Shown: in pieces, positions 2,323 to 60,176 of the stretch
Numbering within the stretch: position 1 is the first letter of the stretch
Layout: each line of letters starts with the position of its first letter
Origin: Octopus sinensis
Lineage: Eukaryota
Length of the DNA: 64,000 nt
NCBI RefSeq assembly: GCF_006345805.1
Contig: NC_042999.1
Coordinates: 17,112,001 to 17,176,000 of the forward strand
Direction of reading: 5' to 3'
Translations under genes and position numbers: made by a program
The notes under the pieces: model-generated
The model's input: only the letters and a program-made list of their open reading frames with translations
Database searches by the model: none
Told to the model about the DNA's origin: nothing

Positions 2323-2355
2323 CATATATATATTATATATATAATATATATATAT

Positions 2356-3019
2356 AACATTAACAATTAAGGAACGGCCATAATAGGCCATTCACCCACT
2401 AGAATAACAGCCAAAGCTTCTACCGCAAATAAGATTAATTCCGTAAACAGGAGAAAATTAAAAAAACATTTACCCTGTAATTTCTTGTACGGTATACCGT
2501 TTCATCCGCTGTTTAATGGTAAACTAACCTGATTAAATTAAATCAAGCCAATCCTCCATAAGCCCTCGGGTTCTTCAGCATTTGCTGCCGATAAATTTGG
2601 CGCGAGTGCGACGATTTGAAAATTTTAGGTCAGATATTGACTTGGCAAGATTGGGTATGCCTCGTGTATATATCTGTCCCGACTTGAGCTATTTCTTGCT
2701 GAAGAATCCGAGGGCTTATGGAGGATTGGCTTGATTTATTTAATCAGGTTAGTTTACCATTAAACAGCGGATGAAACGGTATACCGCACAAGAAATTACA
2801 GGGTAAATGTTTTTTTAATTTTCTCCTGTTTACGGAATTAATCTTTATTTGCGGTAGAAGCTTTGGCTGTTATTTCTAGTGGGTGAATGGCCTATTATGG
2901 CCGTTCCTTAATTGTTAATGTTGAACTAAAATGGCCTATGACTATTTAATTTTTTCCCACTGGGCCGCTGGTGGCAATAAAATTCTACAAAATTTTCCTT
3001 GCCACCCTATATTGATTAA

Positions 3020-3022
<3 letters not shown>
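2356..3022 (+). mobile_element. Penelope-like fold-back element with hammerhead ribozyme, in a (TA)n tract
   Basis: About 225-bp inverted arms 2356-2580/2697-2922, spacer 2581-2696, unique 3' tail 2923-3022 containing CACCCTATATT; TA repeats on both sides. Confidence 0.85.
2691..2796 (+). ncRNA. Type I hammerhead ribozyme motif with long loop 2 and palindromic stem III
   Basis: ATTTCTTG-CTGAAGA-ATCCG...CGGAT-GAAAC-GGTATACC-GCA-CAAGAAAT: 8-bp stem I, 5-bp stem II. The cleavage triplet is GCA here but GTA in the inverted copy (2480-2580). Confidence 0.8.
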
Positions 3023-3058
<36 letters not shown>

Positions 3059-7057: not shown

Positions 7058-7562
7058 TTTAAATAAGGGAGATAAATTAATATTAATTTTAATTCCAATT
7101 TAAAACCAGTAGTCTAGCATACAAAACTCTGAAAAATCGGAGAAAAATTCTAATACATGTGTATATTGACAGGGCAATACTGCTAGGTAATCGGCCGCAT
7201 GCTAGAAATAGATCATCAACGATCAAACTACAACGAATGTTCTCTAGACGAAAATCTAGCGAACACCAGAACCAAATTTGCCGGGCAGGACAGATGAAAA
7301 TTTATATAAAAAACAGAATTAATCGCATACCTAGGTTTCAGTCTTTAACAAAAGAATTACCTACATAATTCAAATGTCCGTGGCCTCGTCAGTACGATCG
7401 TTCAGAATAAATGTAATCCAAAAAACTAACCCCAGCTTTCTGTGCCAAAACAGACACGTGTTTAGTTTTACCGATTACATTAGGGATATATTTCAAATCG
7501 TTGATGATCTATTTCTAGCATGCAGCCGACTACCTAGCAGTCTTCCCCTGTCAATATACACA
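7058..7562 (-). mobile_element. Penelope-like fold-back element with hammerhead ribozyme
   Basis: Inverted arms 7158-7223/7497-7562, unique tail 7058-7157 ending CTCCCTTATTT on the minus strand, flanked by (TA)n and (CA)n. Confidence 0.8.
7322..7398 (-). ncRNA. Type I hammerhead ribozyme motif
   Basis: Minus strand: ATCGTA-CTGACGA-GGCC...GACT-GAAAC-CTAG-GTA-TGCGAT. Canonical core, 6-bp stem I with one G-U pair, palindromic stem III ACCTAGGT, imperfect stem II. Confidence 0.8.
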
Positions 7563-24424: not shown

Positions 24425-24519
24425 ATATGTATAAGGGTGGAAAGGAACACACGAGTTGATATATATGAAAAAACAAGTCAAAAATAGAAAATGCTAAGAT
24501 GATTTTATGGTGAATCTTT

Positions 24520-24557
24520 CAGTACCGGTTTCGGTCATTTTCAGACCTTTTCAACTG
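24520..24557 (-). ncRNA. Minimal type I hammerhead motif with U3-A8 core (sense copy)
   Basis: CAG-TTGAAAA-GGTC-TGAAAAT-GACC-GAAAC-CG-GTA-CTG. Confidence 0.75.
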
Positions 24558-25037
24558 TAACGATTAAATAATTAAATTTAGAAAGATTTAGAAAAATTAG
24601 AAGAAAGGTTTTTTTAAAGGAATACTTTCATAGTAGTGTTCAGATATAGGTGGCATTCTGCCTTTCTCTGACTCCCTTGTTTGCACTTGTGTATTCGAGG
24701 TCGTTGTGAGTTCTTGAGGGGGTGGGAGTGGGAAAATCTGGGCTGGTCAGTGGCGACCGGCAGTCGCTGCGTAGGCGTTATACTTAAAGACATTAGTGAC
24801 AAGGTTAAGGGGTAGAGGGTGGAGAAGTAGAAGAAGAAGAAGAAGATGACGGTGCCGATGATGATGACGATGAAGAAGAAGAAGGAGGAGAAGGAGAAGA
24901 TGACGATGATGATGGTGGTGATGACGATGACGACGATGTTGATGATAATGATGATGAAGAAGAAGGAGAGGAAGAAGAAGAAAAAAAACAGAGAAGGGAG
25001 AATATGAATGGGTGAAGATATAGCTGTGATGGGGCGA

Positions 25038-25853
25038 TTAGTAATGGATTCTATGGAATGTAATATTTGTGTGTGTATATATATTTCTTTTATTCTTAAG
25101 TTGAGGTATATTATTGTTTGTCGTAGACCCGTTAAGAAGTGGCCTGTATTTTATAATAAAGAGATTTTCTTTACTTATTCGTTGTCTCGAGGTTGTATCG
25201 TCCCTAAATTGGTAGAGGGGGAAAATTCTGAAGTTTGGTGTTTTTTTATTGGCGCAAGTATCTATGTGTTGGCTAAAAGCTATTTTTCTGTTTTGGGGAA
25301 TTTTTATCTAGGATCTGTGCAGGGCCATTCGTTTACGCAAACCATTTTTTGTTTGGCCTATGTACTGCTCTTGACACCCGGAGCAGGTTAGTGAGTATAT
25401 TAGGTTCTCCAAAGCACATGTGAAGTTGCTTTTCACTGTAAACCGTTGTCCCTGTTTGAAGGAGAACTCAGAACCCTCGATTAGATAGTCGCATATCCCG
25501 CAATTGGGTCTTCCACATTTTTTTTACTGTCGGCTTCTGTGTTGAAGAGTGAATTCGGGCTTGTGTTAGGAGACTTTTCATGGATCTAGGCTGTCTTTTG
25601 CTTTTTATGATCGTGTGTGTTTGGAGGATTGTGTTCATTCTGTGGTCTTTTTTTATGAGGGGTATCTGGTGGAGGATGGTGCCGAAGGCTTCGTTATTTA
25701 GAGGGTTGTGTGTGGAGATGTATGGTAAGGCTTTTGGTTGTAAGTTTTTCTTTGATTTGGGATGTCTCAGTTCCTTGATGTTAAGTTGAAGGGCACGTTG
25801 AATGCACTTGTCAATAAGTGAAGGTGGATAGTTCCTGGTGATAAGGGTATCTT
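25038..25853 (-). pseudogene. PLE RT C-terminal linker plus GIY-YIG endonuclease (frameshift and premature stop)
   Basis: L..RNYPPSLI...LPYISTHNP, then after a frameshift in the T-run at about 25520: CGRPNCGIC...FTCALENLIYSLTCSGCQEQYIGQT...RKRMALHRS*...H...KENLFIIKYRPLLN. The Cys-rich linker is the Neptune-clade signature. Confidence 0.92.
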
Positions 25854-26091
25854 TAATGTCTTTAAGTATAACGCCTACGCAGCGATTGCCGGTCGCCACT
25901 GACCAGCCCAGATTTTCCCACTCCCACCCCCTCAAGAACTCACAACGACCTCGAATACACAAGTGCAAACAAGGGAGTCAGAGAAAGGCAGAATGCCACC
26001 TATATCTGAACACTACTATGAAAGTATTCCTTTAAAAAAACCTTTCTTCTAATTTTTCTAAATTTTTCTAAATTTAATTATTTAATCGTTA

Positions 26092-26129
26092 CAGTTGAAA
26101 AGGTCTCAAAATGACCGAAACCGGTACTG
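26092..26129 (+). ncRNA. Minimal type I hammerhead motif with U3-A8 core (inverted-arm copy)
   Basis: CAG-TTGAAAA-GGTC-TCAAAAT-GACC-GAAAC-CG-GTA-CTG. Confidence 0.75.
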
Positions 26130-26190
26130 AACGATTCACTATAAAATCATCTTAGCATTTTCTATTTTTGACTTGTTTTTTCATATATAT

Positions 26191-26271: not shown

Positions 26272-26452
26272 GGCCAGATAACCGAAGAGATGGTGTTGTG
26301 GATTTCCATCTCGGCATCCGAAACTCAGAGTTTTATCTTGGCTATTGAATAATTGTCACATATTATTTTACAGATAAATTTCCTCTATTTACATATATTG
26401 AGGTCTCTTTCTTTCTTTTGTTATCTTACCGTTTTTACCAATATAAAAAAAA
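26270..26452 (+). mobile_element. PLE 3' fragment beginning at a hammerhead motif
   Basis: GCCAGATAA-CCGAAGA-GATG...CATCC-GAAAC-TCAGA-GTT-TTATCTTGGC (26273-26342); downstream sequence homologous to 24225-24325. Confidence 0.75.
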
Positions 26453-29757: not shown

Positions 29758-29764
29758 TGCTGGC

Positions 29765-30128
29765 CGAGATGCTTATTGGTATTTCGTCTGTCTTTATGTT
29801 CTGAGTTCAAATTCCACCGAGGTCAACTTTGCCTTTCATCCTTTCGGAGTCGATAAATTAAGTACCAGTTACGCACTGGGGTCGATGTAATCGACTTAAT
29901 ACCTATGTCTGTCCTTGTTTGTCCCCTCTGTGTTTAGCCCCTTGTGGGTAATAAAGAAATAGGTATTTCGTATGTCTTTACGTTCTGAGTTCGAATTCCA
30001 CCGAGATCAACTTTGCCTTTCATACTTTCGTGGTCGATAAATTAAGTACCAGTTGCGTGCTGGGGTCGATATAATCGACTGGCCCCCTCCCCCAAAATTT
30101 CGTGTCCTGTGCCTAAAGTAGAAAAGAA
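29765..30128 (+). mobile_element. SINE family B, internally duplicated (dimeric) form
   Basis: Central domain repeated twice, as at 38170 and 58334. Confidence 0.85.
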
Positions 30129-44496: not shown

Positions 44497-44880
44497 GGAG
44501 GCGCAATGGCCCAGTGGTTAGGGCAGCGGACTCGCGGTCGTAGGATCGCGGTTTCGATTCCCAGACCGGGCGTTGTGAGTGTTTATTGAGCGAAAACACC
44601 TAAAGCTCCACGAGGCTCCGCCAGGGCATGGTGGTGATCCCCGCTGTACTCTTTCACCACAACTTTCTCTCACTCTTTCTTCCTGTTTCTGTTGTACCTG
44701 TATTTCAAAGGGCCGGTCTTGTCACTCTCTGTGTCACGCTGAATATCCCCGAGAACTACGTTAAGGGTACACGTGTCTGTGGAGTGCTCAGCCACTTACA
44801 CGTTAATTTCACGAGCAGGCTGTTCCGTTGGTCGGATCAACCGGAACCATCATCGTCGTAACCGACGGAGTGCTTCCATC
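44497..44880 (+). mobile_element. tRNA-derived SINE, family A
   Basis: A/B boxes; TSD ATCrTACAGGGAGA; near-identical to 983-1367. Confidence 0.9.
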
Positions 44881-57666: not shown

Positions 57667-58333
57667 CACACACACAAATATATTTATATCTTTCTGTATG
57701 TGTGTATGCATGTATATATGTATATATATATATGTATGCCTGAAGAGGTAGAATTGTTGAAGGTAATTCTTTGATGTGTTCAACTCTGTTTCCTTTTTTT
57801 TTCACACTCTATTTCCAGTGGTGTCAACTTCGACTTTCATCCTTCTCAACGGAGAGAAAAATACTTTCGATTTTTCCGAGAGTGATTTATTGAACTAAAC
57901 AGATCCACTGCAATTCTTTGGCCCTCTGACAATGTAACGTATGCCTGCGTTTATTGAAGCGTGACATCAGCCAAGCGTGTATGGCATCAACATTTCCTAT
58001 TTCCTCGATGATATTCGACGCACCCTTTAACATCTCAAGGTTTGTATGGATGTTCTATGCAACGGGGACCAGAATTTTACAGATTTGGAACTACTGTAGC
58101 CAACGGAGAAATAAAAGCCCCCTTCTCTTGTTTTGCTAAACGTCGCTGCCAGTTTTCCCTCTGATCAGATTATGTTAGTTTAGAAGGAAAGGGATACATT
58201 TGATAGTATAGGATCAAAGAAACTCTGCTATAAAGATCAGGGCAGTGTCTCGGAATAAATTTTCTTATAGAAATGCCTTATCAGAACAGGGCTCAAACGA
58301 AATGACAGCACTGCCAATAACATACAAGGTGAA

Positions 58334-58756
58334 GGCGGTGAGGTGGCCGAAATGTTAGCACGCTGGGCGAAATGCTGAGCGATATTTCGTCTGCCGTTAC
58401 GTTCTGAGTTCAAATCCCACCGAGGTCGACTTTGCCTTTCATACTTTCGGGGTCGATAAATTAAGTACCTGTTACGCACTGGGTTCGATGTAACCGACTT
58501 AATCCCTTTGTCTGTCCTTGTTTGTCCCCTCTATGTTTAGCCCCTTGTGGGCAATAAAGAAATAACAATGGCCGGGCAAAATGCTTAGTGGTATTTCGCT
58601 TGTCTTTACATTCTGAACTCAAATACCGCCGAAGTCCACTTTAGCTTTCATCCTTTCAGGGTCGATAAATTAAGTATCAGTTGCGTACTGGGGTCGGTCT
58701 AATGGACTGGCCTGCTTCCCCCAAATTTACGGCCTTGTGCCTACAGTAGAAAAGAA
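58334..58756 (+). mobile_element. SINE family B, dimeric form
   Basis: Homology to other copies; TSD AATAAyATACAAGGTG. Confidence 0.9.
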
Positions 58757-58761
58757 TAATA

Positions 58762-60176
58762 TACAAGGTGGTATCAAAACGTTCCAGAACTGTTTTTGTA
58801 GCGCGCCAGCGAATGGCAGTACACGATTGTTTGCGCAAGGCGAGGTGGCAATGACCATCTTGAGGCAGTGGACCTAGTGATATCGCTGCGTTTACTTGGC
58901 AAGCTGTGAAATTTGTGTCTTTGTAATAACGTGTATCCTGTTGTCTGTGATTTTGTCATGTACAGAAATTTGGAGCAAAATCTAATGTGAAATTTTGCGT
59001 TAATCTTGAGAAGTCTGCTACAGAGGCATGGAGCATGCTTCATCAAGCTTACAGTGACAAGGCAATGGGTTGCACGCAATGGTTCGCGGAGCACGGGTGC
59101 TTCAATAGCAGAAGAAGGTCCCTATATGACGATGGGCGATTTGGAAAACCTTCCAAACCTTCCAAATCGTCAGGCACGAGTTCTACAGCGATGTTTTGAA
59201 GCGTCCAAGGGAGGAGATTCGGCAAAAGTGACCGCAACCATGGATGCCGAAGAATTGGATATTTTATTTACCTTTATGCACGTGTATTATCTAAGGCCAA
59301 GTGTTTCATGATAGCATTACTTACAAACAAAAGAATCATTACATCTCAACATAGTTTCCTAATGGATTGTTGCTATTAAATATCTAGATATGGCATTATC
59401 GTTATCTGTTCTTATCGGATACGAGAGCGAAATATGACATCCGTCTTTGGAATCAGAATTATAGAATGAAATGTGGGCGAGAATTCCAATTAAATGCATC
59501 GAAATACGATGCATCCAATTAAATGCACTTGGTCTTAGATAATACACGTGCTTAAAAGTCAGTAAAAAATCTTCAGGCTCCACGAATGCGGTGGCTTTTG
59601 CCGAATCTCCTCCCTCGAACACTTCAAAATTAATTTTTACTGATTTTTTACTCATGAATCTCTCGCCCAAAATAACATGGCATTGCTTCTGTCCCCGCCC
59701 TATTCCCCAGATTTAGCGCCTGCGGACTTCCAAAATGCAGGTCAATATCACTGTTTTGTTACTGTTGTCCAGACCCAGAGCGAATCGCAGAAGATCATCC
59801 CCGCGCTTACAGAAAACGACTTCTAGGCGGGATTCCTAATGTGACAGGAACGCTGGGGCCGGTGTATTGCTGAGCAAGGTGATTATTTCGAAGGAAATTA
59901 AACATTAGTCCGGGAACGTTTTAATACTTATTTCTTTACTACCCACAAGGGGCTAAACACAGAGCGGACAACCAGGGACAGACATAGGTATTAAGTCGAT
60001 TACATCGATCCCAGTGCGTAACTGGTACTTAATTTATCGACCCCGAAAGGATGAAAGGCAAAGTCGACCTCGGCGGAATTTGAACTCAGAACGTTACGGC
60101 ACACGAAATACGGCTATGCATTTCGCCCAGCGTGCTAACGTTTCTGCCAGCTCGCCGCCTTTAAGACCACCGCGGA
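58762..60176 (+). mobile_element. Deleted and rearranged mariner transposon
   Basis: Left TIR TACAAGGTGGTATCAAAACGTTCCAGAACT; right TIR AGTCCGGGAACGTTTTAATAC[SINE]CACC; N-terminal KFCVNLEKSATEAWSMLHQAY...DDGRFGKPS (58987-59155) and YSPDLAPADF (59701-59730). Confidence 0.88.
59927..60159 (-). mobile_element. SINE family B inserted in the mariner right TIR
   Basis: Homology to other copies; TSD TTTAATAC/TTTAAGAC. Confidence 0.9.

Follow-up and report, generated by a model that had tools for sequence, protein, structure and literature searches.

A probable tandem non-coding retrozyme of Octopus sinensis with a predicted extension of hammerhead helix II and Penelope-type insertions

Penelope-like elements have been proposed, as a hypothesis, to carry the non-LTR retrozymes of animals (PMC7229834; 10.64898/2026.07.22.740005), and the accessible part of the second of these sources, a preprint, reports that one of nine predicted retrozyme dimers was cleaved in vitro. 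As set out in the excerpts available of the Penelope literature, the signature of these elements comprises an inverted, 5'-truncated arm, a tail at one end and microsatellite targets (PMC8557442, PMC3846280); tails are 30-40 nt long (PMC8557442, PMC3846280, PMC11167929), and two internal start sites of reverse transcription explain the signature in vitro (PMC11167929). Among ribozymes, type I hammerhead motifs with a palindromic stem III have long been known (available sections of PMC4209133, PMC3088659 and PMC6155905). Helices II of 6-8 bp are reported, with "longer" ones in megabirnaviruses, in the sections available of PMC13725137. In Naiads, split core halves lie 35-50 nt apart, with no fold given in the accessible text (PMC8557442), and 235 hammerheads are listed for a squid genome, without detail in the part available (PMC6962438).

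We analysed a 64,000-nt stretch of the Octopus sinensis genome, hereafter the window. A tandem repeat with a unit of 491 nt, which we call F1, was inserted head to head at 2356-3022 and has since decayed; this copy is dead and non-coding, and no open frame of at least 90 aa lies within 2356-3022. Unit positions of F1 are counted from the base after the predicted cut, and the features of the locus are as follows.

2323..2355, no strand: (TA)n target, left flank
2356..2580, minus strand: short-end arm, F1 unit positions 399-491 plus 1-134; its 3' end is the family end A
2480..2580, minus strand: hammerhead, minus copy, with the core at 2572-2578 and the GTA triplet at 2488-2490
2576..2587, no strand: head-to-head junction, a short imperfect palindrome
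2580..3022, plus strand: long-end arm, F1 unit positions 282-491 plus 1-236; its 3' end is the family end B
2691..2796, plus strand: type I hammerhead, plus copy, predicted cut site 2788/2789
2706..2772, plus strand: extended helix II (5-bp stem II, internal loop and distal hairpin), from folding and pair counts
2920..3022, plus strand: "tail" of ~105 nt, unit positions 132-236, on the long-end arm only
3023..3056, no strand: (TA)n target, right flank

Both arms start inside a TTGCTG word of the unit, which produces the imperfect palindrome at the junction, and the outer ends are arranged as A|B. The minus copy (2356-2580) is 97.8% identical to the plus copy over 227 nt. Compared with a natural F1 unit, the plus arm carries six differences inside the element and the minus arm four, the ribozyme change being included each time; these differences are either private changes or assembly errors.

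In the plus copy, stem I consists of ATTTCTTG (2691-2698) and CAAGAAAT (2789-2796), forming 8 bp, and is followed by the core CTGAAGA (2699-2705) and, further on, GAAA (2773-2776). Stem II (2706-2710 with 2768-2772; 5 bp) encloses 57 nt, which are predicted to fold into a 7x7 internal loop (2711-2717 with 2761-2767) and a distal hairpin of 4 bp plus 14 bp (2718-2760); the fold has z = -4.65, and 0 of 200 shuffles were as good. Stem III occupies 2776-2787 and the triplet, at 2786-2788, is GCA, owing to a private U16.1-to-C change at 2787 that is predicted to disable this copy. The minus copy keeps GTA, carries a private stem II change that creates a mismatch at 2570, and has lost the 5' strand of stem I at the junction except for 2 nt. 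The original prediction had given the stems, triplets, stem II mismatch and lost stem I strand of the two copies correctly. Judged by core and three stems, neither has a full type I hammerhead, the one for its GCA triplet and the other for its truncated stem I.

A scan of both strands of the window for type I motifs with up to 150 nt in helix II recovered only two complete motifs, the plus copy and a minus-strand motif at 7321-7399, confirming that the second long-loop motif noted originally is real. Rfam gave no match on the window at the gathering score and, with E up to 10, no hammerhead among 115 matches in three loci with intact motifs. The suggestion that length-limited searches would miss such motifs is plausible, and Rfam misses this one, but short-loop control motifs at six loci were missed as well, and loop length is therefore not established as the cause.

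The F1 repeat has a tandem period of 491-492 nt. A 30-nt pattern spanning the cut site, in which the middle base of the triplet is N, has 474 exact matches in the 2.72-Gb genome, defining subfamily F1a, and the core of a sister subfamily, F1b, has 3,169; reversed control patterns gave none. The triplet is GTA in all of the first 100 listed among the 474 matches, and the GCA form occurs once in the genome, in the window copy. Core matches are spread over many contigs, and arrays reach up to 11 full units in one arm. Throughout 34 F1a loci, unit directly abuts unit with no coding sequence between them, so that arrays consist of the 491-nt unit only, and F1 insertions have no terminal direct repeats beyond the unit itself, that is, no LTR structure. 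F1 thus shows the traits of a non-LTR retrozyme: tandem non-coding units with one type I hammerhead each, dispersed and in high copy number. As host of the hammerhead, the element fits a tandem animal non-LTR retrozyme, which the original prediction had not identified, better than a Penelope terminal repeat. Among the sequencing runs listed as containing F1, none is recorded as RNA. Contigs from five sequencing runs guessed to be RNA, and from three of unknown kind, covered 29 of 29 F1 bins; one 521-nt contig wraps round the F1 unit, a picture that a tandem array gives identically. These contigs were used solely to find F1b.

Intact F1 copies have the type I core (CUGANGA, GAAA and UH) and three stems, with stem I open, and in an intact natural copy the full hammerhead is the lowest-energy structure (z = -4.3). 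The canonical core and palindromic stem III that had been proposed are present in the family itself, and reconstructing them from two damaged copies is unnecessary. Loss of the stem I strand is plain 5' truncation where the arms are inverted, at a junction that takes different positions in different insertions. Considering the fold z, the thousands of core matches and the empty controls, the F1 hammerhead match is not due to chance. By its testable features F1 is a real, young metazoan non-LTR retrozyme.

Covariation was examined in the 42 loci, from 69 fetched, that hold at least one full unit, counting changes present in at least two loci. In stem I, pair 1/400 changes from C-G to U-A in 17 loci, and pair 5/396 shows compensatory change in three loci (the same ones); in stem II, compensatory changes affect pair 411/472 in 20-21 loci and pair 412/471 in 9-10. 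N7 is the only variable base of CUGANGA, and 5 of 41 loci have a mismatch at pair 10.1-11.1. In 21 loci TGCA replaces TATA at the centre of the stem III palindrome; the palindrome is kept, and with it a pair whose formation requires two copies. For the two versions, 12-bp stem III duplexes are predicted at -18.8 and -17.5 kcal/mol, versus -2.9 and -0.2 for the monomer hairpins. Across 15 chosen haplotypes, 98.9% of cells are paired and four pairs are changed on both sides; the count of 0 of 500 shuffles obtained for pairing is not a probability, since related sequences can beat shuffles without structure. The compensatory changes in stems I and II imply selection on the ribozyme fold. F1 pair changes mostly mark a few subfamilies and hence few independent events, which limits what the proposed test of loop 2 covariation can say within F1. 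The distal hairpin is not significantly more conserved than the remainder of the unit (variable sites 4 of 44 versus 59 of 384, p = 0.37). When the whole circle is folded, stem I has a pair probability of 0.01 owing to a competing hairpin; we do not claim self-inhibition by this hairpin, whose letters are not kept in F1b.

In the predicted structure, the insert of 57-58 nt in helix II folds as a 7x7 internal loop followed by 4 bp, a 1x1 mismatch and a further 14 bp with a short closing loop. What had been called a 57-nt loop 2 is thus present in length but is not an open loop, and the predicted folds suggest that it is better described as an extended helix II. In the Schistosoma hammerhead, the tertiary contact has U at position 1.7; F1 and F3, a related family, have A there, and an internal loop replaces loop 2. 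The long insert is a family trait, and similar ones are present in two further families, one of which includes the motif at 7321-7399.

Window 7065-7562 and loci L031-L060: F2, retrozyme-like, head-to-head arms with ends ~100 nt apart, 38-nt extension
L150:998-1500 and loci L136-L165: F3, stem III palindrome ACTATGCATAGT, triplet GTC, 43-nt extension

F3 has a 486-nt period and is homologous to F1, being 64% identical over 436 columns, with different yet paired letters in all three stems; in unconstrained folds of F3 copies the hammerhead is not the lowest-energy structure. The motif at 7321-7399 is the F2 hammerhead. F2 copies have GGCC/GGCC or GACT/AGTC as stem II, while stem II of the window copy is mixed, with one mismatch; F2 copies are ~91% alike, so that F2 would be older than F1. 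Two type I motifs, at L020 ~20-81 and L055 ~2530-2605 (both on the minus strand), have helix II extensions of 35 and 42 nt and palindromic stems III, and their sequence is unrelated to F1-F3. Given these two motifs, more families with an extended helix II probably exist. An automatic alignment of the hammerheads of F1, F2 and F3 misregistered the stems and was not used for pairing, which was read from the motif scan and the folds, the cross-family layout being folded on the extension alone.

The extension could be carried along neutrally, or be a signal for a protein or for packaging, play no catalytic part and leave a minimal-like ribozyme without tertiary contacts, an explanation that we regard as quite possible, if somewhat short of probable. 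It would agree with the distal hairpin of F1, in which 0 of 18 pairs show a compensatory change (15 chosen haplotypes), and with the differences in length (35-58 nt) and sequence among families. Moreover, type I hammerheads without clear loop-loop contacts are described in the accessible parts of two sources, for a mussel retrozyme (PMC7229834) and viral motifs (PMC13725137). Against it, the same predicted layout (a stem II of 4-6 bp, then 35-58 nt comprising an internal loop and distal hairpin) is found with unrelated letters in F1, F2, F3 and the L020 and L055 motifs, and none of the 7 sites on the 3' strand of the F1 internal loop varies among 42 loci, although so small a number of sites gives no significance.

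To describe insertions, we drew on every locus covered by the first 100 matches of each subfamily, 34 for F1a and 35 for F1b, scoring as end A any end at unit position 120-136 and as end B any at 224-243. These 69 loci include 54 head-to-head arm pairs. Both outer ends could be classified in 40 pairs, and every one combined a short end with a long one (19 A|B, 21 B|A, no A|A and no B|B), whereas the other 14 had at least one end outside these ranges. All 118 A or B ends adjoin TA runs. Inner arm ends vary in position, often with an overlap of 1-7 nt. F1 insertions match the Penelope signature in their inversion, their tail at one end and their (TA)n targets; the A-B spacing, which is the tail, is ~105 nt and departs from the published 30-40 nt. 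Tails measure ~100 nt in F2 and ~90-120 nt in F3, whose short end scatters.

Units within one insertion differ by a median of 1.5 substitutions in F1a (116 pairs) and 3 in F1b (69 pairs), versus 7 and 24 between insertions (210 pairs each), and units of opposite arms differ by 1 (F1a, 17 pairs) and 7 (F1b, 10 pairs). In five of the eight two-armed loci with at least three full units, a variant is carried by all units of both arms, and the all-unit variants of those five are absent from the other 20 loci of the subfamily. Such locus-private variants in both arms fit repeated copying of one unit-length template, as on a circle; gene conversion, or a uniform source array outside the sample, could likewise give rise to shared variants. 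Among arms crossing at least one cut site, 12 of 50 5' ends lie within 30 nt after it in F1a (p = 1.3e-4) and 4 of 48 in F1b (p = 0.43), making 16 of 98 in the pooled set; a U-rich tract lies at the same place, and we take this enrichment as only a hint of an indirect footprint of self-cleavage.

Together, we consider it very probable that F1 is an animal non-LTR retrozyme, with a type I hammerhead whose helix II is predicted to be extended, that is copied into (TA)n runs, likely by Penelope machinery. Tandem F1 arrays would be transcribed, and the hammerhead, whose predicted activity has the support of covariation, would cut after GUA, either as a monomer or through the 12-bp palindromic stem III formed between neighbouring units. 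The released unit may then be circularised, as known retrozymes and the multimeric head-to-head arms suggest. A putative Penelope-like protein would nick both strands of a (TA)n run, and this candidate enzyme would start reverse transcription at unit positions ~131 and ~236, one per strand, corresponding to the two ends observed. The two cDNAs would vary in length, reaching 11 units or more, presumably by rolling-circle copying, and would be joined to give the head-to-head structure that is observed. In the window insertion, both arms would have ended early, and each would later have acquired its private ribozyme change. Counting against this model are the outcome of the partner search described below, the absence of 5'-end enrichment in F1b, the low pairing of stem I in the whole-circle fold, the lack of compensatory pairs and of higher conservation in the distal hairpin, the 14 arm pairs with an end outside the A and B ranges, and the cleavage of no more than one of nine predicted dimers in 10.64898/2026.07.22.740005.

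More tentatively, and with rather more doubt than belief, F1 may represent an undescribed and abundant class of animal retrozymes in whose hammerhead an internal loop and hairpin take the place of loop 2, and the insertions may capture a step so far lacking in the retrozyme cycle, in which a Penelope-like enzyme primes both target strands at sites ~105 nt apart on one circular RNA and rolls round it to give two multimeric arms. If true, these insertions would directly document, at the genomic level, rolling-circle reverse transcription by Penelope machinery, with a tail length set by the RNA and not by the enzyme.

Alternatively, Penelope machinery might move the retrozyme from a long, uncut multimeric array transcript, with no need of a circle or of cleavage. 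We think this unlikely, if worth serious consideration. Penelope insertion in vitro is independent of ribozyme cleavage according to the available text of PMC11167929, the enrichment of 5' ends at the cut site is absent in F1b, and in some arrays (L197, L216 and L218) variants occur in only a subset of units. However, the private variants found in every unit of both arms at five of eight loci imply a one-unit bottleneck, and the compensatory stem changes point to selection on the fold.

In favour of copying by a Penelope-like enzyme, long open frames occur in no fewer than four Penelope-like families of the genome, each with many near-identical copies (N1, N2, N3/N3b and P1). A window fragment at 25468-25977 led to N1, which has a 784-aa frame with an RVT_1 match and a GIY-YIG match below the curated cut-off; N2, N3/N3b and P1 were reached through protein fragments in flanking DNA. 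From a CX4CxxC motif before the endonuclease, N1-N3 appear to be Neptune-like, following the description in the accessible part of PMC8557442. The window also holds a head-to-head N1 fragment in (TA)n (24430-26190), with ends 34 nt apart, and in longer N1 copies (L128) a frame of 437 aa lies upstream of the one of 784 aa for RT and endonuclease, and there is a minimal hammerhead with a U3-A8 core.

N1 ends lie 64 or 97-98 nt after the family's own minimal hammerhead (30 and 17 ends, respectively), a spacing of ~34 nt, and N2 ends at ~148 or ~198, a spacing of ~50 nt. P1 has a single end class, near 107-110, in 20 of 20 loci; either a tail may be absent or the other arm may lie beyond the fetched flanks. 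A partner element with an end spacing of ~105 nt was not found among the families measured (N1, N2 and P1). We also noticed, before several long ends, a common CCC plus T/A-rich word. The window segment 52084-52197 (minus strand) and loci L251-L270 correspond to the 3' end of the very young P1, with many copies and an identical endonuclease fragment.

It has also to be considered that F1 is the detached pLTR of an autonomous Penelope-like element, amplified as a satellite, which is what the comparison in the original prediction implies. The inversion, the tail and the (TA)n targets are all Penelope traits, and pLTR-derived retrozymes are reported in Xenopus in the available text of 10.64898/2026.07.22.740005. 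We nevertheless judge this origin improbable: the 34 F1a loci show units abutting without coding sequence, no similarity or recognisable shared terminal sequence was found between F1 and the terminal repeats of the four families sampled (N1, N2, N3/N3b and P1), and the hammerheads of N1, N2 and P1 are minimal, with a short helix II, those of N1 and N2 having the U3-A8 core. The long-insert hammerhead is indeed unlike the minimal ones of the Penelope-like elements of this genome, as originally stated. As a separate observation that may be chance, stem I of the N2 minimal hammerhead (L059:870-925; AAGAAAT/ATTTCTT) equals F1 stem I with its strands swapped.

It is hardly credible that the two window copies complement each other functionally, for which one can say only that their defects sit at different positions: because the copies are on opposite strands they cannot complement within one transcript, a read-through transcript would contain sense and antisense and is expected to form a hairpin of ~225 bp, and both point changes are private. 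The "complementary lesions" thus have no special meaning, being independent damage and a coincidence.

Other repeats occur in the window. Dispersed repeats of 200-330 nt with 86-96% identity and a SINE-like look lie at 603-835, 1034-1367, 29759-29967, 44497-44830, 58332-58565 and 59923-60155. Window 26280-26347 is half of a fold-back repeat that forms a ~65-bp hairpin at L064:1575-1735, where an Rfam microRNA match is below threshold and likely spurious.

A published description of the F1 family was not found in the literature searched. Within the literature available to us, partly as excerpts, we found no hairpin extension of 35-58 nt in hammerhead helix II, and the accessible text of those two sources describes no inverted arms, two fixed ends or tail in retrozyme insertions. 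As far as these sources extend, two features of F1 appear undescribed in print, the hairpin extension of helix II and the Penelope-type rule of two ends with its long tail; the supplements of PMC7229834 and 10.64898/2026.07.22.740005 may bear on both. Such an extended helix II broadens the range of shapes found among natural type I hammerheads, and it suggests undercounting of them by short-loop descriptors. With two fixed ends, one per arm, and private variants in both arms, F1 offers a countable footprint for the question of mobiliser and template, and it could serve directly as substrate in the in vitro Penelope assay that already exists.

Compared with known systems, and to the extent that the cited texts are available, F1 is closest to the metazoan non-LTR retrozymes (PMC7229834; 10.64898/2026.07.22.740005), with which it shares non-coding tandem units bearing one type I hammerhead each, a low G+C content and coexistence with Penelope-like elements; its unit length falls within the 51-972 bp range of retrozymes (10.64898/2026.07.22.740005). 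It differs from them in a helix II extended by 57-58 nt, where theirs has a small loop, and in a 12-nt palindromic stem III; its unit also exceeds in length the circles tested for metazoan retrozymes (170-400 nt). With type I hammerheads having a palindromic stem III (PMC4209133, PMC3088659, in the sections available), F1 shares the core, the strand order and a possible dimeric fold, whereas helix II has 4 bp and a small loop in canonical type I motifs, and 6-8 bp in minimal Penelope motifs. Finally, F1 resembles EN+ Penelope-like elements, as portrayed in the accessible parts of PMC8557442, PMC11167929 and PMC3846280, in its head-to-head arms, (TA)n targets and one-end tail, and in having two internal start sites that lie downstream of the hammerhead. 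Unlike them, it encodes no protein (RT or GIY-YIG), both of its arms can be multimers, and its tail is ~105 nt long, as compared with the shorter published tails and the 34-50 nt of two autonomous families of this same genome.
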